This document shows, in pieces, positions 7,041-20,000 of a stretch of DNA of 20,000 nucleotides. Position 1 is the stretch's first letter; each line of letters begins with the position of its first letter. The notes under the pieces were generated by a model, which saw only the letters and a list, made by a program, of their open reading frames with translations, had not been told where the DNA came from and searched no databases. The DNA is from an uncultured virus (IMG/VR IMGVR_UViG_3300034284_002793) (lineage: Duplodnaviria; Heunggongvirae; Uroviricota; Caudoviricetes). Position numbers and translations under genes: made by a program. Where the stretch lies: positions 112,628 to 132,627 of IMG/VR virus record IMGVR_UViG_3300034284_002793, one strand, 5' to 3'.

Positions 7041-7044
7041 CACT

Positions 7045-7131: not shown

Positions 7132-7203
7132 GTTGTTCTAAATCAACGACTTACAACGGGCCACCCTGCGCGCGCGCGTAAGTCCTTGATAATGAGGCAC
7201 TTA
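7129..7203. repeat. Double-palindrome element, copy 1
   Basis: taagttgttctaaatcaacgactta + 25-nt GC core + taagtccttgataatgaggcactta. Confidence 0.9.
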
Positions 7204-7257
7204 CGAATGTCAAGTAAAAAAGATAAAAAAAATTTCACACAATCGCAAAAAAATCCC

Positions 7258-7285
7258 TTGCTTTTTCGGTGGCCTGTGATACATT
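7258..7285 (+). promoter_or_regulatory. sigma70-like module promoter
   Basis: AATCGCAAAAAAATCCC-TTGCTT-16-TACATT. Equivalent promoters have -35 at 8193, 9767, 10536, 11900 and 13286. Confidence 0.75.
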
Positions 7286-7291
7286 GTATGT

Positions 7292-7639
7292 ATGAAAGAT
7301 AAAGAAAACACCACGTTCAACGTCAACGGAACCCTTTGCACGCTCGTCGTCTCGGAAGATCGGGAGGATGATTGCACGAAGCTTTGGCATGACCTCGTCA
7401 GCGTTGACACTGGCAAGGTCGTCGCAACCCTCGACTGGTCGCCCTACTCTTGCCCCTCTAATGAGGAAGTGCAGCAGATCATCGACCTCGGCCTGCCTAA
7501 TGGCTTGCGTTGGGCTAACTCTCACCCTTCTTCTCGCTTCAACTTCGATAGCCTCATGCTGGCGAAATACCTCTCTGGCTACGAGCATCCCGATGGCGGC
7601 AAGATCGAACTGGTCTTCCGCGTTCGCTTGGCCGCATAA
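7292..7639 (+). CDS. Hypothetical protein, 115 aa
   Basis: ATG 6 nt after the -10 box; codon usage matches the region. Confidence 0.8.
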   Translation: MKDKENTTFNVNGTLCTLVVSEDREDDCTKLWHDLVSVDTGKVVATLDWSPYSCPSNEEVQQIIDLGLPNGLRWANSHPSSRFNFDSLMLAKYLSGYEHPDGGKIELVFRVRLAA

Positions 7640-7682
7640 AAAAACTCTTGCGCTTCCACTCAACATCCCATACTCTAACAAT

Positions 7683-7892
7683 ATGAACAGCATCCACGAC
7701 GACTACAACACGCAACCGCAATCCGACGAATACGCGACCGAGCACGAGGAAGTGCGCGGCACGTTCGCCGCCGAGCCTGCCGTTGAGCAGGAGCCGCAAC
7801 CCTATGATGGGTTTGAGGGGCAGTGGGCTGGGGATGGGTCGGGCTTCGACGACCTCGCAGACTGGGGCGAGCAGGAGGGCTGGGACACGTAA
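7683..7892 (+). CDS. Very acidic hypothetical protein, 69 aa (start moved from tracked 7368)
   Basis: TTGCGC(7648)-17-TACTCT-6-ATG. N-terminus IHDDYNTQPQSDE is shared with the 13320 gene. Confidence 0.75.
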   Translation: MNSIHDDYNTQPQSDEYATEHEEVRGTFAAEPAVEQEPQPYDGFEGQWAGDGSGFDDLADWGEQEGWDT

Positions 7893-8012
7893 GAGTGTCA
7901 TAAACTTTCTCCGAACGTTTCGATGCGTGTCTCCATGACGCGGGAATAAACGATGAGGAGACGAAGCGCCCGTTTAAACGGGCGTTTCAATTTGCTAAAA
8001 TTCAATGTTGCG

Positions 8013-8087
8013 TAAACCCTTGATATTCAACAACTTACGCTGGCGCGCGGGGCGCGCGGCCGTAAGTCCTTGATAATTAACGACTTA
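8013..8087. repeat. Double-palindrome element, copy 2 (GC core inverted)
   Basis: taaacccttgatattcaacaactta + cgctggcgcgcggggcgcgcggccg + taagtccttgataattaacgactta. Confidence 0.9.
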
Positions 8088-8226
8088 CGTAACGTCATCA
8101 AGAGTGTCATAAAGAATGTCATAGCGCAAAATTCAAACGCTCGTTTGCCAAAACGTCAACAAAAATAGTTTCGCTAATCGCAAAAAAATATCTCGCTTTT
8201 CGCGCGTCCTGTGCTATTCTGTATAC

Positions 8227-8409
8227 ATGAGAAACAACAACAGAAGCTGGCGCGACGAAGAACGCGAAGCAACCCTCGACTACCCGCTAGGTGTGGATCG
8301 TGAAGATCCCGCCTACCAGCAAAGCCCAGACGCTTACGAGCGTGAAATCGAGCGCCTTAATCGGCACGAAGGCTGGGAGCGTAATCGCGGTGGTTACTAC
8401 CGCCGATGA
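8227..8409 (+). CDS. Hypothetical protein, 60 aa
   Basis: TGTGC-TATTCT-6-ATG. Confidence 0.7.
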   Translation: MRNNNRSWRDEEREATLDYPLGVDREDPAYQQSPDAYEREIERLNRHEGWERNRGGYYRR

Positions 8410-8452
8410 AAAATCGCTTGACTTTCAGCCCCATTTCACCGATACTTTCAAC

Positions 8453-8617
8453 ATGACAGAAAACACCACAACTGGCTGGCCCGAAGTCTGGAACTTCGAC
8501 GAACCCAAAGACGACAACCTCACGCCCGAACAAGCGTTCGACATCCTTTTCGGCTACGCCGAGGAGCGTCATCGCAACGACCCGTGCGCTCGTCCCGCCC
8601 CTAAACCCAAACACTAA
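8453..8617 (+). CDS. Hypothetical protein, 54 aa (start moved from tracked 8291)
   Basis: TTGACT(8418)-17-GATACT-6-ATG. Confidence 0.7.
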   Translation: MTENTTTGWPEVWNFDEPKDDNLTPEQAFDILFGYAEERHRNDPCARPAPKPKH

Positions 8618-8621
8618 CACT

Positions 8622-8831
8622 ATGACAAACACAGACGGCATCATCAAGTCGCTTGAAACTCTCATCAAGCATGAGAAAGCAATTCAGCGTCAAGAAAAAG
8701 AAATTGAAAAATTAAAAGACATCATTGATGGCTCTTTGCAGACGATGCAGGGCCTTCTTGTGTTGAGCGCTGTTCTCTCAAAAGAGATTGAAAGCTTGCA
8801 CAATAATAAGCCTTCTTTTGGACTAAACTAA
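8622..8831 (+). CDS. Hypothetical coiled-coil protein, 69 aa
   Basis: Tightly packed ORF with a heptad-like pattern. Confidence 0.65.
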   Translation: MTNTDGIIKSLETLIKHEKAIQRQEKEIEKLKDIIDGSLQTMQGLLVLSAVLSKEIESLHNNKPSFGLN

Positions 8832-8832
8832 C

Positions 8833-8988
8833 ATGAGCAAAATCATTATGACAATCGACACGCGACCGCTTGCGCGTGTCATAGAGCGCAGCGTCCGCAA
8901 GGCATCTTGCCGCCCATCCTTCGCCATGCGTGTCAAGAAAAAATTCGCGCGCAAGGCAAAGTTTTTTCGCGGTTGGTCTGATCAGTAA
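8833..8988 (+). CDS. Small basic protein, 51 aa (not in ORF track)
   Basis: MSKIIMTIDTRPLARVIERSVRKASCRPSFAMRVKKKFARKAKFFRGWSDQ. Starts right after the previous stop; its TAA is the first triplet of element copy 3. Confidence 0.6.
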   Translation: MSKIIMTIDTRPLARVIERSVRKASCRPSFAMRVKKKFARKAKFFRGWSDQ

Positions 8989-9060
8989 AGCTTTGAATAT
9001 CAACGACTTGCGGCGGCGCGCCCCGCCGCGCGGCATAACCCATTGCAAATCAACGACTTG
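8986..9060. repeat. Double-palindrome element, copy 3
   Basis: taaagctttgaatatcaacgacttg + cggcggcgcgccccgccgcgcggca + taacccattgcaaatcaacgacttg. Confidence 0.92.
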
Positions 9061-9072
9061 CAATATATAGTA

Positions 9073-9089
9073 TTCAGGTAGCGTGCCAA
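9073..9089 (-). promoter_or_regulatory. sigma54-like -24/-12 motif facing element 3
   Basis: Minus strand reads TTGGCACGCTACCTGAA. Confidence 0.55.
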
Positions 9090-9164
9090 TATTGGCGAAT
9101 CTATAAAAATAAAAAAATAAAAAAACCTATTGACGAAAACATCAAACCGAGTTAGCATAAATGT

Positions 9165-9629
9165 ATGAAAAATAAAATTATAACAATCATAGTCACTGCA
9201 TTGGTAACCGCAGCAGTTACTTTCGTTACTCTATCACTTACAGATAGCGAACCGCTGACCGACTGGGTAAAAATGGCGAAGTTAAGAATTAAAGGATGCT
9301 CTGATCCCGAGGCGCACCTGAGCAACGCCAAGCGGATAAAGGGTTGGCTTACCGCAGTTGGAGAGCATGAGCCTGTTAGTGTGAGAATCAGAGAAGGTGT
9401 AGGCTTGCCGCCAGACCAGAGTTTGGCTCCTAAAGGGGTTAAACTCACTCCAACAGCTACAGAAATGTTCATTTTAGTTCGTTCTTCTGATTTTGAGAAC
9501 AATATCCGTGAGATATACGAATTTGATCTCATGAAAATTATGGTGGATAAGGATGCAAGAAAACAATTAAGAGAACTTATTACCAAAACTAAAGCACAGA
9601 GCAATGAGTTTGGTTTCGGTAGTAACTAA
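9165..9629 (+). CDS. Membrane-anchored or secreted hypothetical protein, 154 aa
   Basis: N-terminal basic then hydrophobic segment. TTGACG(9130)-17-TAGCAT-6-ATG. Stop lies inside element 4. Confidence 0.8.
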   Translation: MKNKIITIIVTALVTAAVTFVTLSLTDSEPLTDWVKMAKLRIKGCSDPEAHLSNAKRIKGWLTAVGEHEPVSVRIREGVGLPPDQSLAPKGVKLTPTATEMFILVRSSDFENNIREIYEFDLMKIMVDKDARKQLRELITKTKAQSNEFGFGSN

Positions 9630-9697
9630 CTGAAATTCAACAACTTGCAGAGCCAGATCGGGCCGCGCGGCGTAACTCCTTGATATTCAAAGACTTA
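9623..9697. repeat. Double-palindrome element, copy 4
   Basis: taactaactgaaattcaacaacttg + 25-nt core + taactccttgatattcaaagactta. Confidence 0.88.
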
Positions 9698-9709
9698 CGC
9701 AAAACGCTA

Positions 9710-9726
9710 CGCAATAGCCATGCCAA
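9710..9726 (-). promoter_or_regulatory. sigma54-like -24/-12 motif facing element 4
   Basis: Minus strand reads TTGGCATGGCTATTGCG, with canonical GG-N10-GC. Confidence 0.6.
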
Positions 9727-9800
9727 GTTGCAGAAAAAAAATTTCACACAATCGCAAAAAAATCCCTTGCATTTTTGCGCGTCCGCGCTATATTGAAATC

Positions 9801-10316
9801 ATGAAAGAGAGAAAATCACTAAACGAAAAGCCTCTGACTTGCCTGTTCGTCGGCGTTACCCTCGCTTTGGTATCAGCAGGAGTTGCCATTTATGGGTTGC
9901 GGTTTGGGTTTGCGTCTATTGCCTTTTTGCTTGTTGCTGCTGCAATCTTAAATATCGCAGCGTGGTTTTTTGCCACCCCTGTCGTCTCTTTCGTTGGCGA
10001 TTTTGTAGGAAAATTTTTTACTGGAAGTCAAAACTTTAGCAAGCCCCAGCCTGCTTACAGCCTGCCAGATGGTCTTGCCGCTACCGGACAAAACGCTTGC
10101 GCTATCCTTGCCTACAATGAACTTGCAAAAAATCATCCCGAAGAAATCTTGCCTCATCTTCGCGTGATGAGAATATGGATTGAAAAAATGAATGACGTTG
10201 ACGCTGCGGTTATGGCTTACAATCTCGCCTTGAAAAAAATTCGCGGACAAAAAAATCGCAACGAGTTTACAAAAATGGCAAAAAATAATTTCAGCAAATT
10301 CATCAGCTTTGAATGA
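9801..10316 (+). CDS. Membrane protein with 2 predicted TM helices and a helical, possibly TPR-like C-terminus (start moved from tracked 9720)
   Basis: TTGCAT(9767)-16-TATATT-6-ATG; two hydrophobic stretches. Confidence 0.75.
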   Translation: MKERKSLNEKPLTCLFVGVTLALVSAGVAIYGLRFGFASIAFLLVAAAILNIAAWFFATPVVSFVGDFVGKFFTGSQNFSKPQPAYSLPDGLAATGQNACAILAYNELAKNHPEEILPHLRVMRIWIEKMNDVDAAVMAYNLALKKIRGQKNRNEFTKMAKNNFSKFISFE

Positions 10317-10383
10317 GTGTCATAGCAATGTCATAAACGCTCGGTCAAACGGGCGTTTTACTTTGCGCGAAACCAATTCTATA

Positions 10384-10458
10384 TAAACCCTTGAAAATCA
10401 ACGACTTACGGCGGCGCGCCCCGCCGCGCGGCGTAACCCATTGCAAATCAACAACTTA
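10384..10458. repeat. Double-palindrome element, copy 5
   Basis: taaacccttgaaaatcaacgactta + cggcggcgcgccccgccgcgcggcg + taacccattgcaaatcaacaactta. Confidence 0.92.
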
Positions 10459-10470
10459 CAACATACATCA

Positions 10471-10487
10471 TTCAGATAGCGTGCCAA
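10471..10487 (-). promoter_or_regulatory. sigma54-like motif facing element 5
   Basis: Minus strand reads TTGGCACGCTATCTGAA. Confidence 0.55.
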
Positions 10488-10569
10488 CTTTGCAGAGGGG
10501 CAAAAAATAAAAAAAATAAAAAACGAAAAAATCCCTTGCGTTTTTGCAGTCCTGTGCTATTCTTTAAGC

Positions 10570-10722
10570 ATGGAAAAGAAAATGACTCAATATGCGGACA
10601 AGCTCAACGCCTTCCGCGCTGGCGAAATCACCGAGGACGAATGGAAAGCGTTCTGTTTTGAGGCTCTCTCCGAGATTCTCGAAGACACGAAAGATGTCCT
10701 CATCAGGCTGAAAAATGCTTGA
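10570..10722 (+). CDS. Hypothetical protein, 50 aa (not in ORF track)
   Basis: TTGCGT(10536)-16-TATTCT-6-ATG; MEKKMTQYADKLNAFRAGEITEDEWKAFC... Confidence 0.7.
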   Translation: MEKKMTQYADKLNAFRAGEITEDEWKAFCFEALSEILEDTKDVLIRLKNA

Positions 10723-10753
10723 CCCAATCGCAACAATCAAACATACTACGACC

Positions 10754-10930
10754 ATGAAACAAACACCACAAAAAGCCCAACTCTGGGCAGTCGGAAACAA
10801 AGTCTATCGCGTCATCCGCAACGAAGGCGACAAGACTCACGTTCATCATCACGGGCAAATGGCCCTGTTCTATACGCGCCATCTGAAAATGGCGACACCT
10901 TCACAAGTTGCAGAATACTTGGGAAAATAG
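10754..10930 (+). CDS. Hypothetical protein, 58 aa
   Basis: TTGACC(10719)-17-CATACT-6-ATG. Confidence 0.7.
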   Translation: MKQTPQKAQLWAVGNKVYRVIRNEGDKTHVHHHGQMALFYTRHLKMATPSQVAEYLGK

Positions 10931-10966
10931 TTTGACAATCACCACAAAACCTAACAGAATAACAAC

Positions 10967-11182
10967 ATGACAAAAAAACAATTCACCGCAATCGCTAACA
11001 TCTTGGGAAAACGCTTGGCCGAAAAAGTCAAAGCACCCATCGGAGAATACGAAGTTGTCGAAGTCCTCGCGTTGGACTTGGCGAAATACTTCTCGACAGA
11101 AAACCCTCGTTTCGACGAAGATCGCTTTCTGGAAGCTGTTTTTACTCACACCCCTAACATCCCTGTGGGATCATATAAATAA
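10967..11182 (+). CDS. Hypothetical phage protein, 71 aa
   Basis: TTGACA(10932)-17-CAGAAT-6-ATG. MTKKQF..IA...NPRFD..RFL.A pattern recalls a common small phage protein. Confidence 0.8.
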   Translation: MTKKQFTAIANILGKRLAEKVKAPIGEYEVVEVLALDLAKYFSTENPRFDEDRFLEAVFTHTPNIPVGSYK

Positions 11183-11186
11183 TCAC

Positions 11187-11366
11187 ATGAAAAAATACAT
11201 CACATTCGACCGCATTGCCTACGCAATGTCCCTCTCCACCTTCATCTTCATCGCCGTGACGCTTTGCGCTGCTTGCGTTGAATTGCAAAACAGAACCAGC
11301 AAGAACCAAAAGCAAATGCAGGAAGAAGTCCGCGCAATGTTTGCCCACATCGAGGCACCTCTATGA
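11187..11366 (+). CDS. Small single-TM protein, 59 aa
   Basis: ATG just after the previous stop; hydrophobic segment; ATGA overlap with the next gene. Confidence 0.65.
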   Translation: MKKYITFDRIAYAMSLSTFIFIAVTLCAACVELQNRTSKNQKQMQEEVRAMFAHIEAPL

Positions 11367-11563
11367 TTACCCCCAATATCCAAAAAGCTCTTGAGTCAAA
11401 CGGAGTTCGTTTCTTTGCAAAAGACTTTCTCATGGAAGGTATGCGGAAAGACTGCGTTGACGCCGTGCATGATGCAAAACTCGTTTACGAATTGCTAAAA
11501 GAACGCATGGAAAAAATGCTTGCAATCGAACCCGAAGACGAATACATTAAAGCCAATGAGTAA
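11363..11563 (+). CDS. Hypothetical protein, 66 aa
   Basis: ATGA-coupled to the upstream ORF. Confidence 0.7.
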   Translation: MITPNIQKALESNGVRFFAKDFLMEGMRKDCVDAVHDAKLVYELLKERMEKMLAIEPEDEYIKANE

Positions 11564-11744
11564 AGACCAAGTCAAAGCCGTGTGCGATTACTCGCATGAT
11601 GTCATAATGAAAATCAAAGCCGTGTTCGGATTCAAAAAGAAAAGTCCTTCGCTTCTTTGTCATAGTCTCGCGCACCTCAACACCGCGACATGGCTTGAGC
11701 GCGCGGTCTGCAACGGCACAATCATGGACTACAAGCCGCGATAA
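11556..11744 (+). CDS. Hypothetical protein, 62 aa
   Basis: TTGCAA(11520)-17-TACATT-7-ATG. Stop lies 2 nt before element 6. Confidence 0.6.
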   Translation: MSKDQVKAVCDYSHDVIMKIKAVFGFKKKSPSLLCHSLAHLNTATWLERAVCNGTIMDYKPR

Positions 11745-11746
11745 CG

Positions 11747-11821
11747 TAAAGCGCTAATAATCAAGCACTTACGGCGGCGCGCCCCGCCGCGCAGCGTAAG
11801 TCGTTGAAAATCAATCACTTA
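11747..11821. repeat. Double-palindrome element, copy 6
   Basis: taaagcgctaataatcaagcactta + cggcggcgcgccccgccgcgcagcg + taagtcgttgaaaatcaatcactta. Confidence 0.92.
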
Positions 11822-11833
11822 GGCAAAAGCACT

Positions 11834-11850
11834 TTCATACAGTGTGCCAA
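11834..11850 (-). promoter_or_regulatory. sigma54-like motif facing element 6
   Basis: Minus strand reads TTGGCACACTGTATGAA. Confidence 0.5.
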
Positions 11851-11933
11851 GTCCGCTGTCAAGTAGAAAAAAAATATTTTTTTAATCGTAAAAAATTCCT
11901 TGCGTTTTTGGCATATTGTGGTATTCTTTAATT

Positions 11934-12173
11934 ATGAAAATCACCAAGCCCGACCTCTACGAAGCCCTCATCCAAGCGCGTGTCGCCTTATCGAAAGACA
12001 TCCGCGAAACTTTGCGCGGTCGCCACCTCTCCTACGTTCAAGACCTCTCGCGGAAATCCATCCGCGAAAAAATCGCGGCCTATCGGTTGCTCTCCAACCT
12101 CTCCACGATCAACGCGGAAAGCTACTCGGACAACCGCTCTCTGCGTCACGTTAAAAAAGCTCTTGCCAAGTAA
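11934..12173 (+). CDS. Basic hypothetical protein, 79 aa
   Basis: TTGCGT(11900)-16-TATTCT-6-ATG. Confidence 0.7.
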   Translation: MKITKPDLYEALIQARVALSKDIRETLRGRHLSYVQDLSRKSIREKIAAYRLLSNLSTINAESYSDNRSLRHVKKALAK

Positions 12174-12198
12174 CGCAATCTCTGACAAAATCACCACC

Positions 12199-12882
12199 AT
12201 GAAACTACTAAGCACCAACAATACCAAAATCAAAAAAGGCGAAAAGCTCGGCTGGCGCACTTACGGCCTTTCACTTTCACCCGCTGGCAAAAGTGGAAAA
12301 CAATTCTGTCCGCATCGCTCGGCTGGCTGTGAGTTTGCTTGTCTCGACACTTCGGGCATGGGCATCTTCTCAAACGTCCAAGACGCACGCCTTGCAAAGT
12401 CGCGTTTCTTCATCGACAACCGCAACGAGTTTCTCGCTCAGTTGCATAAAGAATTGCACAATGCCGAAAAGTGGAGCGCAAAAAATAATACGCCTGTGGC
12501 CGTGCGTCCGAACGTGCTTTCTGATCTGCCTTTCCATAAGCTGATCGACATGGCGCGCTTTCCGTCAATTCAGTTTTACGATTACACGCCGAACCTTCAA
12601 CGCATGATGCAGTTTCTAAACGGCGAGTTGCCTAAAAATTATCACCTGACCTTCTCGCGCAAAGAGGACAATCAGCATCGTGTCCACGCTGTTGTTGCCG
12701 CTGGCGGTAACGTGGCCGCTGTCTTTAGTGAGTTGCCCGAAACCTACCTCGGAAAGCCTGTCATAAACGGCGACGAAAGCGACTTGCGTTTTCTCGACGC
12801 GCAGGGCGTGATCGTTGGACTCAAAGCAAAAGGCAAAGCTCTCAAAGATCAATCTGGCTTTGTGGTGCAAGTTGGCGTATAA
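12199..12882 (+). CDS. GP88-family phage protein (Cys-cluster, possibly Fe-S)
   Basis: CPxxSxGCxxxCL, RPNVLSD, FYDYT, NYHLTFS, GGNVAAVF and GDESDLRFLD motifs recognised by eye. Promoter TTGCCA(12163)-17-CAAAAT. Confidence 0.75.
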   Translation: MKLLSTNNTKIKKGEKLGWRTYGLSLSPAGKSGKQFCPHRSAGCEFACLDTSGMGIFSNVQDARLAKSRFFIDNRNEFLAQLHKELHNAEKWSAKNNTPVAVRPNVLSDLPFHKLIDMARFPSIQFYDYTPNLQRMMQFLNGELPKNYHLTFSRKEDNQHRVHAVVAAGGNVAAVFSELPETYLGKPVINGDESDLRFLDAQGVIVGLKAKGKALKDQSGFVVQVGV

Positions 12883-12953
12883 TGAAAACCTATGGAAATC
12901 ATAATCCTTCTTGCTGGCATTATCGGTGGCGCATTACTAATAAATAAAAAATT

Positions 12954-13112
12954 ATGACACTAAACCTAATCGCACGAAAAAACTTGTTTCGCTTGTCTGA
13001 ATACTTTTTCAGCCTTGCGGTATGGTGGGAACGCGCTGGCGTTATGACACTCCAAAAACTTTTCTTTATGGGGTGGCAAAAATGCCTTGACACACGAGAC
13101 AAATTACGGTGA
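12954..13112 (+). CDS. Hypothetical protein, 52 aa (not in ORF track)
   Basis: MTLNLIARKNLFRLSEYFF...; stop lies 2 nt before element 7. Confidence 0.5.
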   Translation: MTLNLIARKNLFRLSEYFFSLAVWWERAGVMTLQKLFFMGWQKCLDTRDKLR

Positions 13113-13114
13113 CA

Positions 13115-13189
13115 TAACCTACTGAAAATCAACGACTTACGGCGGCGCGCCCCGCCGCGCGGCGTAAGTGCTTGAAAATCAACGACTTA
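13115..13189. repeat. Double-palindrome element, copy 7
   Basis: taacctactgaaaatcaacgactta + cggcggcgcgccccgccgcgcggcg + taagtgcttgaaaatcaacgactta. Confidence 0.92.
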
Positions 13190-13201
13190 TACAAAATGCC
13201 A

Positions 13202-13218
13202 TTCAAGAAGCATGCCAA
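13202..13218 (-). promoter_or_regulatory. sigma54-like motif facing element 7
   Basis: Minus strand reads TTGGCATGCTTCTTGAA. Confidence 0.55.
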
Positions 13219-13319
13219 CTCACAGAAAAAACGCTCGTTTGAATTTTCGTCAACAAAAATACTTTTCAGAATCGCAAAAAATCCATTGCATCGTGCCGTG
13301 CCTGTGCTACTCTTTACCT

Positions 13320-13451
13320 ATGCAAGCGAACACCATCACCGACGACTTCAACACGCAAACCCAAAGCGACGAGTTTGCCTCCGAATTTGAGGCTTGGCTC
13401 GACGCGCAGGAACTGAAATACTGGCAGGAAATCGACGCTCGCGGAAATTAA
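13320..13451 (+). CDS. Acidic peptide, 43 aa, paralogous N-terminus to the 7683 gene
   Basis: TTGCAT(13286)-16-TACTCT-6-ATG; ITDDFNTQTQSDEFA. Confidence 0.7.
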   Translation: MQANTITDDFNTQTQSDEFASEFEAWLDAQELKYWQEIDARGN

Positions 13452-13455
13452 TTTT

Positions 13456-13692
13456 ATGACAAACACAAACCCACTACACGGCTACCTCTCCGACTGCTGC
13501 GGAGCCGAACACGACATCAACGCCGAACACCACATTCTCAACGAGAGTGTGCGTGGAGGATGCTCCGCTTGCGGACACTACTCGGAGTTTTCCCCTGTGG
13601 AGGAAAACGTCCGGCACAATCAACGCATCAGCCTCTCCGCTCTCAATGCGTTCGTGCCAGACGAGTTGAACTCTTACGAGCAGCCGTGGTAA
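13456..13692 (+). CDS. Small zinc-ribbon-like protein
   Basis: SDCCGA...GGCSACGH cysteine pairs. Confidence 0.7.
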   Translation: MTNTNPLHGYLSDCCGAEHDINAEHHILNESVRGGCSACGHYSEFSPVEENVRHNQRISLSALNAFVPDELNSYEQPW

Positions 13693-13735
13693 ATTGTTTG
13701 ACACTCTCAACCCTAACAACTAACATCATCAATCT

Positions 13736-14230
13736 ATGAACAAAGCAAAAGTCCTAATCAGTCCTTACGGAAACGGCATCGCTGTCGGCCTTGAGGGAAA
13801 CAAAGATCAAATCGAACGCGAATATAATCGCTTTTTTAATTGGGGCGCAGCTGGTGCTGGCGCGAATGTCGAACGTGGCAACGGCGACTCTGAAATCCAG
13901 CACGGAGAACTTGGCGACTCTTACCTCCACTATGTCGGAGAAGGGTTTGCCTACTTCCTGTCATCGGAAAAAGATATGCTTCGCGCTATGACATATGAAC
14001 ACTTGACCAAGTGGCAAGATAGCGAAACGTCAGCGCAATATAAAACAAAGCCACGCAATCACAAGAGGGATTCGGGCAAGGTATTCCGCGAACACGCGCA
14101 GATCGCAGCGCAAGACGAATATAATGAAATCGAACGCGAGAACTTCATGCTCTACCAGAAAGCTCCCGCATACATCTTCCGCGAGCTTGATGGCGGCGCG
14201 CCGTCTTGGAGAAGTGAAACGGAGGACTAA
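13736..14230 (+). CDS. Hypothetical protein, 164 aa
   Basis: TTGACA(13698)-17-TAACAT upstream; codon usage matches the region. Confidence 0.8.
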   Translation: MNKAKVLISPYGNGIAVGLEGNKDQIEREYNRFFNWGAAGAGANVERGNGDSEIQHGELGDSYLHYVGEGFAYFLSSEKDMLRAMTYEHLTKWQDSETSAQYKTKPRNHKRDSGKVFREHAQIAAQDEYNEIERENFMLYQKAPAYIFRELDGGAPSWRSETED

Positions 14231-14234
14231 TATA

Positions 14235-14504
14235 ATGAAAAAAATACTTGTCACCGTTAAGCAAATTATAGAAGTCCCAGACTCTTTCAAAATTACAAGT
14301 TTTACAGAGCCAGGAGATGTAGCGTTTGATTATATAAAAATAGGAAAAAAATTAACTGCGCCAGATATAACATGGTTTGACTATGACAAAGTTTCTGGCG
14401 TTGGAAGCGAGAGCGACGAACTCGTTGAGCGTCTCGCCCCTGCAATAGTTGACTACTCCTTGCAAGAATTTTCTTTCGATGAAGATCCTAACGTAAGTTG
14501 TTGA
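14235..14504 (+). CDS. Hypothetical protein, 89 aa, AT-rich codons
   Basis: GGAGG upstream; ATG just after the previous stop; its TGA lies inside element 8. Confidence 0.7.
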   Translation: MKKILVTVKQIIEVPDSFKITSFTEPGDVAFDYIKIGKKLTAPDITWFDYDKVSGVGSESDELVERLAPAIVDYSLQEFSFDEDPNVSC

Positions 14505-14568
14505 AAATCAACGACTTGCGGCCCCGCGCCCCGCGCCCATGTGTAAGTGCTTGATACTGAACAACTTA
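14494..14568. repeat. Double-palindrome element, copy 8
   Basis: taagttgttgaaaatcaacgacttg + 25-nt core + taagtgcttgatactgaacaactta. Confidence 0.9.
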
Positions 14569-14635
14569 TACATAATACCATAACAAGCCCATCTGATAAT
14601 AATAATGCATTTTTATTCATATGATAGTGTTTTAT

Positions 14636-14702
14636 CTATTTAGCTATTTGACTAATAACTATTTCCTATTTATCTATTTCACTTTTAGCTATTTCGCTAT
14701 TT
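14636..14702 (+). repeat. CTATTT direct-repeat array
   Basis: Exact CTATTT at 14636, 14644, 14659, 14666, 14674, 14689 and 14697, with degenerate copies at 14652 and 14682. Confidence 0.8.
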
Positions 14703-14810
14703 GTCGAAGTATTTAAGAAATTTCGACAGGTTTTTTTGTTATGTCGAAAGGATCGACATGAGAGAAAAACATTTGACTGATGTGTAAATTGTGATAGAGT
14801 TGGAGGTAGA

Positions 14811-14884
14811 GGAGTTTTAGCTCAATTGGTTAGAGCGCTGCCCTGTCACGGCAGAGGTTGCGGGTTCGAGCCCCGTAAACTCCG
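14811..14884 (+). tRNA. tRNA-Asp(GTC)
   Basis: Acceptor ggagttt/aaactcc; anticodon arm ctgcc-ctGTCac-ggcag; TTCGA T-loop; no encoded CCA. Promoter TTGACT(14773)-16-TAGAGT. Confidence 0.95.
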
Positions 14885-14892
14885 TTTTTTTT

Positions 14893-14967
14893 GGGAAGGT
14901 AGCTCAAAGGTAGAGCAGCGCCCTTTTAAGGCGTTGGTTCTGGGTTCGATCCCCAGTCTTCCCACCA
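14893..14967 (+). tRNA. tRNA-Lys(TTT)
   Basis: Acceptor gggaagg/tcttccc; gcgcc-ctTTTaa-ggcgt; encoded CCA. Confidence 0.95.
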
Positions 14968-15033
14968 AAAAAATTTCAAAAAATAATCAAAATACCCGTT
15001 GACAAAACCATCAAAAAACCCTATTCTTAAAAC

Positions 15034-15297
15034 ATGAAAGCACTACTAAATAAAGTCAAACTCGCAATCGCTGACTCCAAAATCGGTCAGTTCACCAACC
15101 CTGTGTATCGCTTGAAGTATCGGCCTTACACCGAACAAGGAAACAATGAGGTTTATACCTACTTCGTTTCTCGACCCTTCGACTTGTTCGCTAACGGAAT
15201 CGTGGCTTACTGCTTCGGCAAAGGTGTTCGCAGGTTCCGCTACGATGAAATCGTTGAGCGGGAAGTTGTATCGCTCTTTGGAAAATCTGTGGCGTAA
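15034..15297 (+). CDS. Small WYL-like (Sm/SH3-type barrel) domain protein
   Basis: LKY...VSRPF...IVAYCFGKGVRRFRYDEI matches the WYL RxFRxDRI signature. TTGACA(14999)-17-TATTCT-6-ATG. Confidence 0.6.
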   Translation: MKALLNKVKLAIADSKIGQFTNPVYRLKYRPYTEQGNNEVYTYFVSRPFDLFANGIVAYCFGKGVRRFRYDEIVEREVVSLFGKSVA

Positions 15298-15312
15298 AGC
15301 CACGAATAAACA

Positions 15313-16050
15313 ATCTGCCCGACAATCAATATCGGAAATAAAAGAAGCAAAGTTAACCGGATCTTTGCGGTGGTCGCTTAATGCGAAATATAAAACATCC
15401 GCCGAGGCAGATAAACATTTACAAGTAGCCCGAAAAAATATCGGAAACAAAAGCAGGACAGAATAGCGTCTGTCATCATATACAAAACGCACCGAGGCTT
15501 GAAATATGGGAGTCGCCCCGACCCCAAAGATGTAATGCATGACATCTCGGGGCAACTTTAAATATCTACGAGTTCATACCAGAGGGAACTGGTGCCCACG
15601 CGTAGAGAATAAACTCCCAAACTTTTAGTTCTTTTACATCTTGAGGGCTGACTCCTCCCAGAAGGGGGAGAGCGCGCAGCAGAAAACCAGAGGAATTAAC
15701 CTCCAGCCCACAACTCTCCCAAGCTCTGGCGGATACATCTCCGTTCAACTTGTGAGCTAGTCGTCGAAAGACGATTCGATGTCGGTGCCGCCAGAAGGCA
15801 CGGAGTCATAGGCAGGGAGTTCTGGCCTCCCTGTCAACACTTTCTGTCATAAAAAAAAATCGCCGTGGAGTAACGGTCCACTAGTCAGAACCTACTGATG
15901 AATAAGAGTAAGCTGATCGTGACAGCAATAAAGGGGATGGTCACCACCGACCCGCGAGCGGCTCGCGTTAGCTGGTTAGTGCTGCAAAGCATTAGCCCCC
16001 ATTTGATCCGTAAGGAGACGATGATGGGAAGCATGGCAGCCGACACTTTC
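15313..16050 (+). ncRNA. Candidate large structured ncRNA, or cluster of ncRNAs, upstream of tRNA-Cys
   Basis: No convincing ORF; many nested stems, GNRA tetraloops and complementary loops (see findings). Confidence 0.65.
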
Positions 16051-16121
16051 GCACCTTTAGCCAAGTGGTAAGGCAGGAGTCTGCAACACTCTTATCGCTG
16101 GTTCGAATCCAGCAAGGTGCT
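16051..16121 (+). tRNA. tRNA-Cys(GCA)
   Basis: Acceptor gcacctt/aaggtgc; ggagt-ctGCAac-actct; U discriminator; no CCA. Confidence 0.93.
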
Positions 16122-16187
16122 GATTATCAACGAGTTACAGCTACACGCCCCGCCGCGCCGCGTAAATGCTTGAATATCAACGCTTTA
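16113..16187. repeat. Double-palindrome element, copy 9, overlapping the tRNA-Cys 3' end
   Basis: caaggtgctgattatcaacgagtta + 25-nt core + taaatgcttgaatatcaacgcttta. Confidence 0.85.
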
Positions 16188-16240
16188 TAAAGTATAAATA
16201 TCCAGTTGACAAAATTTTCAAATAGGGCTATTCTTACAGC

Positions 16241-16966
16241 ATGATCACCACACAACTACCTCTACCCATGCGTTGCTCTTCTGATGCTCTCGTTCAGCCA
16301 GAGCTTGAACTCAAGCCTACGCGCAATCCTTCCTACTCTCGCGTCGAACGCTTCTTTGATTCCTTGGATCGTTCGCGTGTTGTGTCATACACCGACTACT
16401 GGAATTCCATTGCGCCCAAAGGAACACAAGATGCAATGTTGCGCTGGCTCTTTGCTTTTATGTCAGTCCATACGAGTTGGAAGTCCAACGTCAACGGCTA
16501 CAACGCAATCAAAACAATGGATTGGTGGCACGATCAACAAGTCCTCCTTAACAAGCTCAAGCATAGTGGCGTTGGCTTGCACAACAATCGCACGAAATTT
16601 GTCTGGCAGTTCCAGAAAAACTTTTGGGGTGATGTCAAAAAGTATTCTCACGCTCCTACGGATTGGCGCGGTCATCGTGACGAGTTGGTTAGCGAAGTGC
16701 TTGGTCTTGGCAAAGCTAAAGTCTCTTTCTCGTTGGAGATGATTCATCCCGACAAGTGCGAAGTTGTCTGCATGGATACTCATATGTTCCAAGCCTACTC
16801 GCTCGACCAAACCAAAGACGAAAAACATTACGATAACATCGAAGCCCATTGGATTTCAATGTGCCGTGCGTATGACGTTCCCTGCTACATTGCGCGTTGC
16901 CTTTACTGGGATGCGATTCAAGACAAGCAGGATTCGCGCTACTGGTCGTATGTTTTTGAAGAATAA
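16241..16966 (+). CDS. Helix-hairpin-helix DNA glycosylase-like protein (Ogg/EndoIII superfamily)
   Basis: LVSEVLGLGKAKVSF HhH-like motif followed by VVCMDTHM with the catalytic-type Asp. Promoter TTGACA(16206)-17-TATTCT-6-ATG. Confidence 0.7.
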   Translation: MITTQLPLPMRCSSDALVQPELELKPTRNPSYSRVERFFDSLDRSRVVSYTDYWNSIAPKGTQDAMLRWLFAFMSVHTSWKSNVNGYNAIKTMDWWHDQQVLLNKLKHSGVGLHNNRTKFVWQFQKNFWGDVKKYSHAPTDWRGHRDELVSEVLGLGKAKVSFSLEMIHPDKCEVVCMDTHMFQAYSLDQTKDEKHYDNIEAHWISMCRAYDVPCYIARCLYWDAIQDKQDSRYWSYVFEE

Positions 16967-17004
16967 TCCTTGCAATCCATTTCAAAATCCAATACATTAA
17001 GAAC

Positions 17005-17229
17005 ATGAACAAAACCACTACCATCATCACCCGCCGTTCACCCTTCACCCAAAAAGTTAACAGGATGGAGATTCCTCTCTCCCATTCGGAGTTTGAGAAG
17101 AGGACAATTCTTTGGCAGTCTGGGATGCTCATTCAAGATGCGTTCCCCATGCTGTCCGCTGATGAGCGCGAGTTCATCAAAACTGGTATCACTCCCGAAG
17201 AGTGGGAACAGATGTTTGGAGAAGACTAA
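17005..17229 (+). CDS. Hypothetical phage protein, 74 aa
   Basis: TTGCAA(16970)-17-TACATT-6-ATG; LIQDAFPxLSADEREFIKTG motif familiar from small phage proteins. Confidence 0.8.
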   Translation: MNKTTTIITRRSPFTQKVNRMEIPLSHSEFEKRTILWQSGMLIQDAFPMLSADEREFIKTGITPEEWEQMFGED

Positions 17230-17250
17230 TATAGAAAGGAGGAAAATATA

Positions 17251-17421
17251 ATGAAACTAATCGAAGGTGCTATTTATAACTACAAAGGGGAAGCTGTTCG
17301 TTTCCGTAAACAGATTGGCGTTGTTGCTTTCTTGTCGCGTCGTAAGCGAGGTTCGTTTGTTGGACGAACTGATTTGCTCAAGAAGGCAAATAAAAAGCAG
17401 GTCGATAAATTCCTCAAATAA
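17251..17421 (+). CDS. Basic hypothetical protein, 56 aa (not in ORF track)
   Basis: AAAGGAGG upstream; MKLIEGAIYNYKGEAVRF...; stop lies 3 nt before element 10. Confidence 0.7.
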   Translation: MKLIEGAIYNYKGEAVRFRKQIGVVAFLSRRKRGSFVGRTDLLKKANKKQVDKFLK

Positions 17422-17424
17422 GCG

Positions 17425-17499
17425 TAAAGCTCTCGTAATCATGGGGTTACGAGGGCGCGCCCCGCCGCGCTGCGTAAGTCGTTGGAAATCAACCACTTG
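17425..17499. repeat. Double-palindrome element, copy 10
   Basis: taaagctctcgtaatcatggggtta + cgagggcgcgccccgccgcgctgcg + taagtcgttggaaatcaaccacttg. Confidence 0.88.
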
Positions 17500-17511
17500 C
17501 GCATTTGTCCT

Positions 17512-17528
17512 TTCAGGAACCGTGCCAA
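17512..17528 (-). promoter_or_regulatory. sigma54-like motif facing element 10
   Basis: Minus strand reads TTGGCACGGTTCCTGAA. Confidence 0.55.
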
Positions 17529-17605
17529 TTCCCAGAAAAATATTTTCAATCAAATTGCAAAAAAAGGTTTGCTCGCTCATACAAAAACACTTATTCTTAT
17601 GAAGT

Positions 17606-18385
17606 ATGAGAAACCTAAACCTAACACTGCACTGCGGCGGTCACGCCGTGGAATCCACCCAAGTTCAGCAAACTCCCACTCCCGCACCCACGGATTCGTG
17701 GATGCCCATCCCGCACTTCGCGCTCATCGAGCGTCTGCGCGAGATCGTCGGTAGTGCTGGCTTGACCATCACGCAAGAGGCGCACGCCCTTGCTCGCAAC
17801 GGCCTTCGCTACTTCGGATTGTTCCAAGTGGCGGGAATCCCCAACTTCTCACAGGAGTCCAACATCGGGACTGTGATCGGCTTGCGCAACTCGCACGACA
17901 AGTCGTTTCCCGCTGGCATCAACGCTGGTTCCGCGCCTTTCGTGTGCGACAACCTCGCGTTTCACAACGAGATCAAAATCGCTCGTCGTCACACCAAGTT
18001 CATCATGCGCGACCTTCCTTCGCTCCTTTCGGGCGCATTCGGAAAGTTGCTCAACACTTGGGGCAACAACGCCAAGCGTATCGAGGCTTACCAGTCTTGC
18101 GCGCTCAAGGACGTTCAAGCGCACGACCTCATCGCCAAGGCTTACCGCTGTGGCGCAGTGAGCAAGACCGCTCTGGCGGACGTTCTCGACCAGTGGCACA
18201 ACCCCGAACACGCCGAGTGGTCGGAGCAGAAGAACCTCTGGGGTCTTCACAACTCCTTCACCAACGTCATGCGCGGAAACGTGCTCGCGTTGCCCAAGCG
18301 TAGCGATGCGCTCCACGGACTTCTCGACCCTATCGCAGGCGTGGCGCTGGCGAGGGCAGAAGACGCCGAGGCCATCACGGTCTAA
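17606..18385 (+). CDS. DUF932-family phage/plasmid protein
   Basis: PIPH...FGL...GLRNSHDKS...G..FVCDNL...RHT motifs typical of DUF932. Confidence 0.8.
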   Translation: MRNLNLTLHCGGHAVESTQVQQTPTPAPTDSWMPIPHFALIERLREIVGSAGLTITQEAHALARNGLRYFGLFQVAGIPNFSQESNIGTVIGLRNSHDKSFPAGINAGSAPFVCDNLAFHNEIKIARRHTKFIMRDLPSLLSGAFGKLLNTWGNNAKRIEAYQSCALKDVQAHDLIAKAYRCGAVSKTALADVLDQWHNPEHAEWSEQKNLWGLHNSFTNVMRGNVLALPKRSDALHGLLDPIAGVALARAEDAEAITV

Positions 18386-18400
18386 ATTCTGAGACGCACA

Positions 18401-18438
18401 AAAGGGCTTGGCAGGGCAACCTGTCAAGTCTTTTTTTT
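18401..18438 (+). terminator. Intrinsic terminator
   Basis: ggcttggcagg-gcaa-cctgtcaagtc hairpin followed by T8. Confidence 0.85.
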
Positions 18439-18457
18439 GCAAAAATTCATTGTTGTG

Positions 18458-18532
18458 TAAGTCATTGAATATCAAGCACTTGCGCCGCCGCGCCCAGCTG
18501 CCCAGCGTAAGTCTTTGATTGTCAAGGGTTTA
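18458..18532. repeat. Double-palindrome element, copy 11
   Basis: taagtcattgaatatcaagcacttg + 25-nt core + taagtctttgattgtcaagggttta. Confidence 0.9.
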
Positions 18533-18596
18533 CATTTTAATGCAAAAAATATCTTGACCGCACACGCAAAAGACTTTATTGTCATTATATCACCAC

Positions 18597-18923
18597 ATGA
18601 AACTATCAGAAATTCAAGCCATTGCAAACCTCACAGCAAAATTCCTCGGACTCCCAATCAAACCCAAGGCCGAAATTACTACCAATAAACGAGGCCGCGC
18701 CTACACCACGCAGGGCCGCTTCAATATTCCAGAGTGGGCCTTCAAGCACGGAGAAAAGTTTGTCATATACTATGTTGTGCATGAAGTCTGCCACTTTTAC
18801 GGAGGAACATTAGATCACGGCAAACTCTTTTGTCAAGTCGAAGACCGCGCATTAAAATTTTGGGGGCTTTACATTCAACGCAAAAAAGTTTATCCTAATC
18901 CACAATCAATCTACAAACTATGA
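18597..18923 (+). CDS. Small zincin metallopeptidase-like protein (SprT/YgjP-like)
   Basis: YYVVHEVCH...DHGKLF (HExxH plus distal His). Confidence 0.75.
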   Translation: MKLSEIQAIANLTAKFLGLPIKPKAEITTNKRGRAYTTQGRFNIPEWAFKHGEKFVIYYVVHEVCHFYGGTLDHGKLFCQVEDRALKFWGLYIQRKKVYPNPQSIYKL

Positions 18924-19168
18924 GCAAAAATACCTGCCCTGCTGATTACGATGGCGAAATGCTTGTTATCGGTGGCTATGTAAAATACGATGGAAAGACT
19001 TGGGAAGTCCTTGACTACGAAGATTCCGAACAGCCATACTTTGATGATAACTACACGGAACATAGTATTCTTTTATTGGCTTGCCGCTCGCAAGAGGAAG
19101 ACAATATTTGGATACCAGATTATGAGGTAGAGCAAACTGAATATCAGCAATTGTGTTTTGAACTATGA
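18920..19168 (+). CDS. Acidic hypothetical protein, 82 aa
   Basis: ATGA-coupled to the upstream gene. Confidence 0.7.
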   Translation: MSKNTCPADYDGEMLVIGGYVKYDGKTWEVLDYEDSEQPYFDDNYTEHSILLLACRSQEEDNIWIPDYEVEQTEYQQLCFEL

Positions 19169-19247
19169 AAAATATCGTTCTATTTGTCGCTCTACCTATC
19201 ACTATTTGTGTCTGGTCGTTCACTATTTATGGAGTAATTAAATTTTT

Positions 19248-19320
19248 GGGGTGGTAGCTCAATGGTTAGAGCGTGCGGCTCATAATCGCTTGGTTGTCGG
19301 TTCGAATCCGACCCGCCCCA
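19248..19320 (+). tRNA. tRNA with CAT anticodon, probably Ile2 (lysidine type) rather than Met
   Basis: Acceptor ggggtgg/ccgcccc; loop ctCATaa. The CTCATAATCGCTTGGT stretch resembles bacterial tRNA-Ile2; the paired 1-72 position argues against an initiator. Confidence 0.88.
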
Positions 19321-19395
19321 CATCTATTTGAAAATCAAGCACTTACAGATGAGTGCCCCGCCGCGCCGCGTAAGTCGTTGATATTCAATGGCTTA
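19321..19395. repeat. Double-palindrome element, copy 12, abutting the tRNA 3' end
   Basis: catctatttgaaaatcaagcactta + 25-nt core + taagtcgttgatattcaatggctta. Confidence 0.85.
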
Positions 19396-19439
19396 CAAAA
19401 ACACTTGACACCAATCGCAACCTGTGATACATTTAGAGG

Positions 19440-19604
19440 ATGAACACTACTATTGCATCCTGTCGTGAACAAATCCAAGAGGACTTGATTTGCTTGCTTG
19501 AAGCTGCGAATAATCTTGGCCTCAAAGAACATCTTGAAGAAGTCACTACGCTGGCCTGTAAAATTGTGGTTGACAACTTCAAAAAACTTGAGAAGATAAG
19601 CTAA
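19440..19604 (+). CDS. Hypothetical protein, 54 aa (not in ORF track)
   Basis: TTGACA(19405)-17-TACATT-6-ATG; TAATG overlap with the next gene. Confidence 0.7.
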   Translation: MNTTIASCREQIQEDLICLLEAANNLGLKEHLEEVTTLACKIVVDNFKKLEKIS

Positions 19605-19867
19605 TGAACGACTACAAACTACCCAAAGACGCCTACTCTGCTGCTCGCTATGACGAGTTACACTTTGCTGTTGCCCACTATGGCACAGCCATGCACCGAA
19701 ACCTTTGGGACTTGCTTGTTGACGCTGGCTTGAGCAAGCGACAAATCTTTTCCCAATACATGAAGGTTCTTCGTGTGACTACGGCTGTAAATAAAGACAT
19801 TCTCTATTGTGTAGGGACTGGTAATTTTTCAATCAAACCTGTTGACAAAAAGAGCAAAACCCTATAA
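19604..19867 (+). CDS. Hypothetical protein, 87 aa
   Basis: TAATG-coupled ORF. Confidence 0.65.
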   Translation: MNDYKLPKDAYSAARYDELHFAVAHYGTAMHRNLWDLLVDAGLSKRQIFSQYMKVLRVTTAVNKDILYCVGTGNFSIKPVDKKSKTL

Positions 19868-19875
19868 TATCAAAA

Positions 19876-20000
19876 ATGATGAAAACGCTAAACGCACTAA
19901 TCAAAACCGACGAGTCCATCACCGCAGTTCTTGATGGAGTTCCCAAGACGATGAGTTGTAACCATCCGTCTTTCACCGAGGCGATCACTTGCCTCGCTAC
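19876..20000 (+). CDS. 3'-truncated gene, possibly an rIIB-like N-terminus
   Basis: MMKTLNALIKTDESITAVLDGVPKTMSCNHPSF resembles my recollection of rIIB-like N-termini. TTGACA(19842) promoter upstream. Only ~41 codons are visible. Confidence 0.4.
   Translation, partial: MMKTLNALIKTDESITAVLDGVPKTMSCNHPSFTEAITCLA

Follow-up and report, generated by a model that had tools for sequence, protein, structure and literature searches.

A variable array of small structured RNA modules beside a phage tRNA gene

Introduction

Regions of phage genomes that carry tRNA genes have held stable RNAs without an explained function since T4, and unexplained structured RNAs at such sites are already a known kind of element. 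Here we analyze one such region, the stretch between the stop codon of orf87, a gene for a basic protein of 87 amino acids, and a tRNA-Cys gene (positions 15298–16050, + strand) in a window of 20,000 nucleotides (nt) of viral DNA. The window is the final 20 kb (positions 112,628 to 132,627) of the 132,627-base record of an uncultured virus (IMG/VR IMGVR_UViG_3300034284_002793; Caudoviricetes), which has an estimated completeness of 88% and 17 tRNA genes. Our preferred reading, to which we assign a probability of roughly 0.7, is that a cassette array of small + strand RNAs, each folding on its own, occupies the region; these RNAs would lie in one transcription unit and are probably processed and trans-acting. 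The modules are designated A1, A2, M, B, V, core and D. The array adds a distinct layout to what has been described, in which a short gene is followed by a changing series of small pseudoknotted RNAs, and these by a tRNA.

In T4, rnaC (species 1, 139 nt) and rnaD (species 2, 119 nt) lie in tandem beside tRNA-Arg on the same strand (NC_000866). Like them, the array is non-coding, of unexplained function and adjacent to a tRNA gene on the same strand, with D ending at the base before tRNA-Cys, and the core, at about 128 nt, is close to them in size. T4, however, has two such RNAs, whereas here as many as seven modules, in sets that differ between arrays, follow a protein gene; moreover, the predicted fold of rnaC ends in a T-arm-like hairpin with the loop TTCGAAT, whereas the 3′ loop of the core, TTCTGGC, is not tRNA-like. 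When the T4 region was searched, with filters off, using R1, our covariance model of the most conserved part of the array (the core), homology to rnaC or rnaD was not detected, the best row (7.6 bits, E 0.24) lying on the strand opposite rnaC. The phi29 pRNA, of about 120 nt, uses two complementary loops to link its copies hand in hand into a ring. The core shares this complementary-loop feature formally, but it differs in that the loop pairing is 4 nt in pRNA and 7 nt in the core, and in that the core does not lie beside packaging genes; the core has no match in Rfam 15, whose models would cover pRNA as well, provided that this release contains that family.

GOLLD and ROOL, which occur near tRNA islands, have recently been shown to form RNA-only cages held by quaternary kissing loops (PMC12286853). 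The array resembles them in its phage niche, which for them is often near tRNA islands, and in its many pseudoknots and GNRA loops. Their kissing loops are paralleled by two perfectly complementary 7-nt loops in the array core, for which assembly is only hypothetical; in contrast to GOLLD and ROOL, the array shuffles its modules and can be as short as 349 nt. UG27 phage arrays consist of structured units of about 135–167 nt, with hairpins and a pseudoknot, and show gain and loss of single units (bioRxiv 10.64898/2026.09.22.753630). Both systems are thus variable phage arrays of pseudoknotted units. The UG27 units have one fold and lie beside a reverse transcriptase and two accessory proteins, whereas our modules differ in fold, only A1 and A2 being paralogous, and no RVT_1 (PF00078) match was found in the genome of the window (G000, 88% complete) or in those of two relatives (G003 and G004, both 100% complete). 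PeSLs of the T4-type phages RB49 and phi1 mediate modular shuffling of small early genes (PMC2839356). The unit described here is likewise bounded by a repeated stem-loop and a strong sigma-70-like promoter, with about ten such cassettes in the window; PeSLs are regulatory DNA/terminator elements between genes, and they account for the frame of the array, but not for its RNA modules.

Results

Non-coding modules that vary among related phages

A first-pass annotation of the window had proposed here a structured non-coding RNA of about 740 nt, possibly a divergent GOLLD or ROOL, or else several RNAs processed from one transcript. It had seen no convincing open reading frame (ORF), and this was borne out: the six overlapping ORFs (55–169 amino acids) align to relatives only in part, and five of them have in-frame stops in some relatives, as against orf87, the control, which is stop-free in 24 of 24 matches. 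The region folds on the + strand with z = −4.64 (0 of 20 shuffles as good) and on the − strand with z = −2.67. The structured stretch reaches the first base of tRNA-Cys (16051), and the three hairpins with GNRA loops that had been pointed out are present: agtcgtc-GAAA-gacgatt at 15759–15776, ggttagtgct-GCAA-agcattagcc at 15974–15997 and tcc-GTAA-gga at 16007–16016. The array and its upstream gene are laid out as follows.

15034–15297, + strand: orf87, conserved basic protein of 87 amino acids, directly upstream of the array wherever both are visible
15314–15411, + strand: A1, outer stem TCTGCC/GGCAGA enclosing a hairpin (15347–15368) and a small capped hairpin
15427–15499, + strand: A2, a paralogue of A1, with outer stem AGCC/GGCT and hairpin GACAGA/TCTGTC
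15515–15553, + strand: M, stem GCCCCGA/TCGGGGC enclosing a hairpin, found in the lineage of the window
15565–15618, + strand: B, a hairpin (CCAG/CTGG) within an outer stem (TCTACG/CGTAGA), the hairpin loop GGGA forming a pseudoknot with a TCCC further downstream
15644–15712, + strand: V, a variable hairpin-rich spacer of putative structure, in some relatives only
15714–15843, + strand: core RNA, about 128 nt, found in all but one of the 22 arrays
15858–16050, + strand: D, a multi-hairpin RNA of about 165–195 nt, which abuts tRNA-Cys and holds the second and third GNRA hairpins

Relatives of the locus, found via flanking proteins and DNA patterns, belong to uncultured freshwater phages of about 170 kb, two of which are represented by complete genomes (166.5 and 178.5 kb) with terminal repeats. 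IMG/VR contigs with the same locus numbered nine by core patterns, ten by orf87 and six by the A-module pattern, and all are of one lineage; nothing outside this lineage came from the IMG/VR pattern scans, which used two patterns for the core and one for the A module. We also collected 80 metagenome loci by a search with the 241-amino-acid protein that is encoded downstream of tRNA-Cys (16241–16966). R1 matched 21 of them, one being truncated by the contig end, and two weak minus-strand rows (17.2 and 13.8 bits) were rejected as chance. All of the 21 core-bearing loci are among the 30 whose 241-amino-acid protein is at least 70% identical. The nine remaining loci of the 30 comprise five with less than 220 bases of upstream DNA, one (L057) with 1.9 kb of upstream DNA and no array, two more with no array (L064 and L065), and one (L058) that has an array without the core. 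The core was not found in the 50 loci in which the protein is at most 56% identical, or in the record of a relative at 51% identity.

We delimited 22 complete arrays, from the orf87 stop codon to tRNA-Cys. These are not independent samples, since that of L036 is identical to the window and those of L061–L063 are near-identical. Their lengths range from 349 to 1278 nt, the smallest consisting of A1 and the core. By blastn against the parts of the window, and by alignment for D, the core is present in 21 arrays, A1 in 19, A2 in 17, a D-type module in 14 and B in 8; V occurs at 75–100% identity in 9 of the 37 loci compared, including L036, the identical twin of the window. The order is A2-B in the window, L003, L005 and L008, and B-A2 in L007, L037 and L052. 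In four arrays (L008, L045, L054 and L055), 9 nt separate the core from the tRNA, and gaps in relatives are filled by further modules not found in the window. Each module closes on itself, and no conserved long-range pairs linking one module to another were found. The gain, loss and reordering of modules point to separate cassettes rather than one folded molecule. A single RNA of about 740 nt is therefore unlikely, and the last alternative of the annotation, several RNAs on one transcript, fits best, with processing as its presumed step.

Compensatory changes support several of the RNA structures

Covariation gives good support for structured non-coding RNA encoded on the + strand; the core, B and D all have compensatory pairs among homologs. 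The elements of the core are the following.

15743–15757, + strand: P2, helix
15759–15776, + strand: P3, GNRA-capped helix, the first of the three hairpins above
15785–15801, + strand: P5, GTGCC-GCCAGAA-GGCAC
15811–15835, + strand: P4, GGCAGGGAG-TTCTGGC-CTCCCTGTC
following P4, + strand: tail AACACTTT

The core has a sharp 5′ boundary at 15714, upstream of which the sequence is unrelated between loci, and a 3′ end near 15843, and the genome contains one copy of it. Over 26 distinct sequences the columns average 92% identity, and unpaired stretches are as invariant as paired ones. Copies of the core are 89–100% identical to that of the window; the corresponding ranges are 76–89% for orf87 DNA and 72–94% for the DNA of the 241-amino-acid gene. 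Under a model of local helices, 99.9% of 936 alignment cells are paired, with seven pairs changed on both sides (25 cells). None of 500 shuffles had covariation as high, and sliding the partners by 1–3 columns left 32–47% paired. The changes are distributed among P3, where four of the seven pairs have compensatory changes (26 sequences), P4, with one compensated pair and one change from G·U to G-C, and P5, with two independent double changes (GTGTC/GACAC in L054 and GTGCT/AGCAC in L047). G·U pairs, which are C·A mismatches on the opposite strand, occur in P3 in 15 and in P4 in 21 of the 26 sequences. As a side observation, L058 has at its positions 1060–1210 an unrelated, hairpin-rich stretch of about 150 nt in the place of the core, ending in a similar CAACCACTTTC tail.

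For B, 100% of the cells are paired in nine sequences, and 5 of the 17 pairs are changed on both sides, two of them within the pseudoknot, whose variants are GGGA/TCCC, GGAAAG/CTTTCC and GGAAGG/CCTTCC. The covariation score was 0.193, compared with 0.071 in shuffles (0 of 500 as high), and slid controls paired at 34–46%. In D, helix h1 occurs as GTGGA/TCCAC, CTTGG/CCAAG, TTGGG/CCCAA and ATTGG/CCAAT, and h3, h4 and h5 also have compensatory variants, amounting to 3–4 compensated variants per helix. These helices were counted by a script, instead of by pair-counting on the MAFFT alignment, because that alignment is one column out of register at h1. With respect to the GNRA hairpins, the first and the third are thus supported by relatives, the loop of the third remaining GNRA throughout (GTAA, GCAA or GAAA), whereas the second is a rare insertion, seen in 3 of 14 aligned D modules.

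In A1, which hardly varies, 98.6% of the cells are paired over 18 sequences, with one covarying pair (CG 13, UA 4, UG 1), and a pseudoknot between a loop and the 3′ side (CGGAT/ATCCG) is possible. A1 and A2 are linked by two direct-repeat families, D1 and D2, with shared stretches of 21–25 nt at 76–84% identity. A2 may also form a pseudoknot (GCG..CGC in the window, GGG..CCC in the other clade), and its fold taken alone is weak (z = −0.77). The annotation had further noted an A(C/A)ACTTT motif at the ends of three sub-domains; it does occur at 15619, 15837 and 16043 on the + strand, and A/C-then-T-run tails of a similar kind follow module ends in relatives, but the motif is not enriched, as detailed below.

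Complementary loops and possible alternative states of the core

The P5 loop GCCAGAA (15790–15796) and the P4 loop TTCTGGC (15820–15826) are exact 7-nt reverse complements, and the 5′ segment CTCTGGC (15724–15730) likewise complements the P5 loop. Each of these loop or segment duplexes amounts to about −9.7 kcal/mol. The minimum-energy and RNAalifold folds contain a long helix of CTCTGGCGG with CCGCCAG (−51.3 kcal/mol), which excludes P5; enforcing P5 gives −49.2 kcal/mol, a cost of 2.1 kcal/mol before loop pairing is counted. Judged from the aligned sequences, covariation favors P5, and the long helix would accommodate the same changes with one mismatch. The core may switch between states, or its loops may pair within or between molecules, and the alignment cannot choose among these because all the columns concerned are invariant.

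It is conceivable, albeit at long odds, that the core is a self-assembling RNA, copies of which join through their loops as dimers, rings or cages. The 9-nt linker would barely let the P5 and P4 loops meet within one molecule, so copies would link between molecules. If so, the core would be akin to the GOLLD and ROOL nanocages, at a far smaller size, and its own 5′ CTCTGGC segment would compete for pairing and so toggle assembly.

Known RNA families and novelty

We compared positions 14700–16400 with all 4227 families of Rfam 15 by cmscan at E ≤ 10, and scanned the whole window at gathering scores. The first search returned only tRNAs and chance rows over tRNAs, and the second returned four tRNAs; the core was matched at neither threshold. 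Loci of 20 relatives (116,828 bases), at gathering scores, also gave only tRNAs. Membership in GOLLD or ROOL, which the annotation had raised, found no support: in the region no family except tRNA matched at E ≤ 10, the GOLLD covariance model was unmatched at that threshold, and the ROOL model was unmatched both there and, at gathering scores, in the relatives. GOLLD as one RNA, often of more than 800 nt, with a universal 3′ region also disagrees with arrays of 349–1278 nt in which modules are reordered and of which 8 of 22 lack D, the part next to the tRNA.

A tRNA or tRNA-like element was rejected as an identity, as ARAGORN and the Rfam tRNA model found none in 15298–16050. T-loops have a purine and an A at loop positions 4 and 5, and the 7-nt P4 loop TTCTGGC lacks them. 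A ToxI-like type III antitoxin was rejected as well, with no tandem array in 15200–16250. When the region was compared by blastn with the phage GenBank collection, only the tRNA-Cys part matched, over tRNA genes where annotated. The pattern CTCTGGCGGA..GCCAGAAGGCAC had six hits in the genomes of 185,579 species, all in unrelated bacteria and none confirmed by R1 or Rfam; the best of the six reached 12.8 bits with R1, a score driven by the pattern itself.

With no Rfam match, the module RNA families appear to be new. Full-text literature searches found no description of these RNAs, and the contig numbers are absent from the supplements of the IMG/VR structured-RNA catalogue that were covered, three files being outside this coverage, so that overlap is possible. 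One 128-nt member stays near-constant while the proteins encoded next to it fall to 72% identity. At their size the modules can be made by synthesis, the promoter is E. coli-type in appearance, and the complementary loops offer a simple hypothesis that mutants can test.

Proposed transcription unit

14999–15027, + strand: sigma-70-type promoter, TTGACA, 17 nt, TATTCT (10 of 12 consensus matches)
16051–16121, + strand: tRNA-Cys (GCA), 66.8 bits, CCA end not encoded
16122–16195: repeated stem-loop element, followed by the next promoter
16206–16234, + strand: promoter with the same TTGACA-17-TATTCT layout, preceding the 241-amino-acid gene
near 8013–8077, 8994–9073, 10397–10452, 11747–11814, 13122–13191, 14495–14554, 17458–17493 and 19334–19399, both strands: stem-loop element copies

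The only strong sites in a + strand scan were the putative promoters at 14999 and 16206, with no promoter-like site inside the array, and the sole + strand terminator-like site in the scanned stretch lies upstream of the array, where it coincides with the tRNA-Asp T arm. At both promoters (stretches 14999–15036 and 16206–16243), an ATG lies 6 nt past the −10 box, so the orf87 mRNA is probably leaderless; judging by the same spacing, the two promoters would be used to produce leaderless mRNAs of these early genes. From the layout of genes, modules and promoters, orf87, the modules and tRNA-Cys would be co-transcribed. The stem-loop and promoter cassette downstream of tRNA-Cys probably bounds the unit. 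This repeated element is about 70 nt long, with short inverted arms around a C-rich center; the window has about nine further copies of it, which lie between small genes and on either strand. The stem-loop after tRNA-Cys folds with z = −3.2 and −2.1 in relatives and z = +0.6 in the window copy.

Contigs from metatranscriptomes (three studies) include a 151-nt piece (X3) that is identical to the window over 15259–15409 and covers A1, and contigs of relatives (X5 and X7) that cover A2, the core and tRNA-Cys. Each metatranscriptome run contained a small share of the sequence words (0.04–0.10).

Discussion

Selection acts on this region at the level of RNA, on the + strand, and the region is modular and conserved. 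We propose that the unit runs in the order of the promoter at 14999, leaderless orf87, A1-A2-M-B-V-core-D, tRNA-Cys and the stem-loop/promoter cassette, and that the whole would be transcribed together. RNase P cleaves the 5′ end of every tRNA, and it would cut at the 5′ end of tRNA-Cys. RNase E prefers A/U-rich single strands, and the linkers of the array resemble such sites; an endonuclease would presumably cut within these A/U-rich single-stranded linkers after the closing stems of the modules (for example, at ACTTT). The pseudoknotted modules would then persist as stable small RNAs, like T4 rnaC and rnaD, and act in trans on a conserved partner, which might be a protein or an RNA, of the host or of the phage, or another of the modules. 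The near-constant unpaired bases of the core point to a specific molecular partner.

Several findings weigh against this reading. No partner or function was found for any module. The inner helices and the pseudoknot of A1 never vary, so these candidate structures are neither supported nor contradicted; support for A2 comes from one compensatory pair between two clades, and that for M is thin, the sole comparison being a related form elsewhere in L004 (GCCCAGA/TCTGGGC) with one compensatory pair. The 5′ half of the core is ambiguous between the long helix and P5 in the predicted folds. A(C/A)ACTTT has 16 matches in the window against 11.2 ± 3.1 expected, a number reached by 18 of 200 shuffles. 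No T-run follows the stem-loop at 16122–16195, so the end of the transcription unit is uncertain and termination there would be a presumption. The RNA-library contigs have a depth of 2–7, not above that of neighboring genes, and give a weak hint, as carry-over of DNA is possible and strand, ends and levels are not readable from them.

That the region is instead one large ornate RNA of the GOLLD/ROOL kind, about 750 nt acting whole, its core domain conserved and its peripheral domains variable, is in our judgment improbable. Its parts are contiguous, co-oriented and ORF-free, neither an internal promoter nor an internal terminator was seen, and the entire stretch folds at z = −4.6; GOLLD, for its part, combines a conserved 3′ with a variable 5′ region and lies near tRNA islands, with tRNAs sometimes in the linker (PMC12286853). 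The lack of an Rfam match at E ≤ 10 argues the other way, as do the two orders of A2 and B, the shrinkage to A1 and the core in 349 nt, the L058 array with no core and the failure to find conserved inter-module long-range pairing. The modules could also act in cis, as a 3′ untranslated region that shields the orf87 mRNA from 3′ exonucleases or as a determinant of the yield or timing of tRNA-Cys maturation. We consider this unlikely, while noting that orf87 and tRNA-Cys flank the array in every case, all in one orientation, that stable pseudoknots block exonucleases, and that a variable composition is expected if any stable fold suffices. Mere stability elements, however, need no constancy of sequence, and the loops and linkers of the core are invariant over 26 sequences while the flanking proteins fall to 72% identity; in addition, the four arrays in which D is absent and the core abuts the tRNA imply that no fixed tRNA leader is required.

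Two further explanations accept small RNAs and differ in their partner. The modules might be RNA partners of the orf87 protein in a phage ribonucleoprotein, an idea that we hold to be a minor possibility. The protein is small, basic and β-rich, possibly with an Sm- or WYL-like barrel, WYL rows being at the top of its Foldseek matches and Hfq lower, and in other systems, domains of the WYL and Sm types bind nucleic acids that are single-stranded. The gene and the array are always adjacent, both are limited to the same lineage (ten IMG/VR contigs for orf87, nine for the core and six for the A module), and orf87 was not found beside distant relatives of the 241-amino-acid gene. A role of the modules as RNA decoys, which would mimic or trap host factors such as an RNA-cutting defense protein and make the array an RNA-level anti-defense island, has only a slim chance of being correct. 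Pseudo-ToxI repeats of some phages neutralize ToxN. The gain, loss and shuffling of cassettes among near-identical phages is the pattern of accessory and anti-defense regions, mimicry of a conserved target predicts near-invariance, and the modules are pseudoknotted; on the other hand, Tandem Repeats Finder detected no ToxI-like tandem near-identical repeats in 15200–16250, no Rfam family matches, and none of the six pattern hits among the 185,579 species was confirmed by the model, leaving no known host original. Finally, it is extremely improbable that the stretch functions as a DNA site (an origin, or a packaging or recombination site) or as small protein genes. The core does contain two direct copies and one inverted copy of TCTGGC, and ORFs of 55–169 amino acids can be drawn. 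Such a non-RNA explanation is nevertheless already contradicted by the covariation of the core and B, in which compensatory changes keep the pairing and not the sequence, by G·U pairs and GNRA loops that make sense on one strand only, and by ORFs that are not conserved and contain stops in relatives. A cassette array of small RNAs thus remains our preferred reading.

Flanking genes and other observations

The most distant homologs of orf87 are 57–65% identical. In Foldseek, its best rows were WYL domains (PafBC at probabilities of 0.91 and 0.89, and also BrxR, CapW and DriD). Searches of the genome for WYL and TROVE gave no match, and genes for Ro (TROVE) and RtcB were not found in the virus record. 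At least 170 relatives of the 241-amino-acid protein occur in metagenome contigs of freshwater and marine origin, and the protein has no tblastn match in the phage GenBank collection, which holds cultured phage records; it shows a sub-threshold match to an Ogg-type helix-hairpin-helix (E 3.5e-4; 20.6 bits, where the cut-off is 27). As to the host, a GP88-family protein matches, in the same phage collection, proteins of Pelagibacter, Mycobacterium and other phages, all below 50% identity, and names no host; the metallophosphoesterase, used as a host probe against bacterial genomes, gave no relative.

The tRNA genes of the window are Asp and Lys (14811–14967), Cys (16051–16121) and Met (19248–19321). 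As read directly from the sequence, those for Asp, Lys and Cys do not encode the 3′ CCA, so that for maturation these tRNAs depend on the host, which must trim their 3′ ends and add CCA. Upstream of orf87, L003 (1315–1385) and L027 (813–883) carry an element that scores as a tRNA at 47.4 bits in Rfam, whereas ARAGORN lists none in L003; these may be aberrant tRNA or tRNA-like genes. The G+C content of the window changes sharply, from about 31% over the first 6.6 kb to 43–60% in the rest (6600–20000), and the low-G+C part carries genes for a 1261-amino-acid protein, a 431-amino-acid protein and the metallophosphoesterase.

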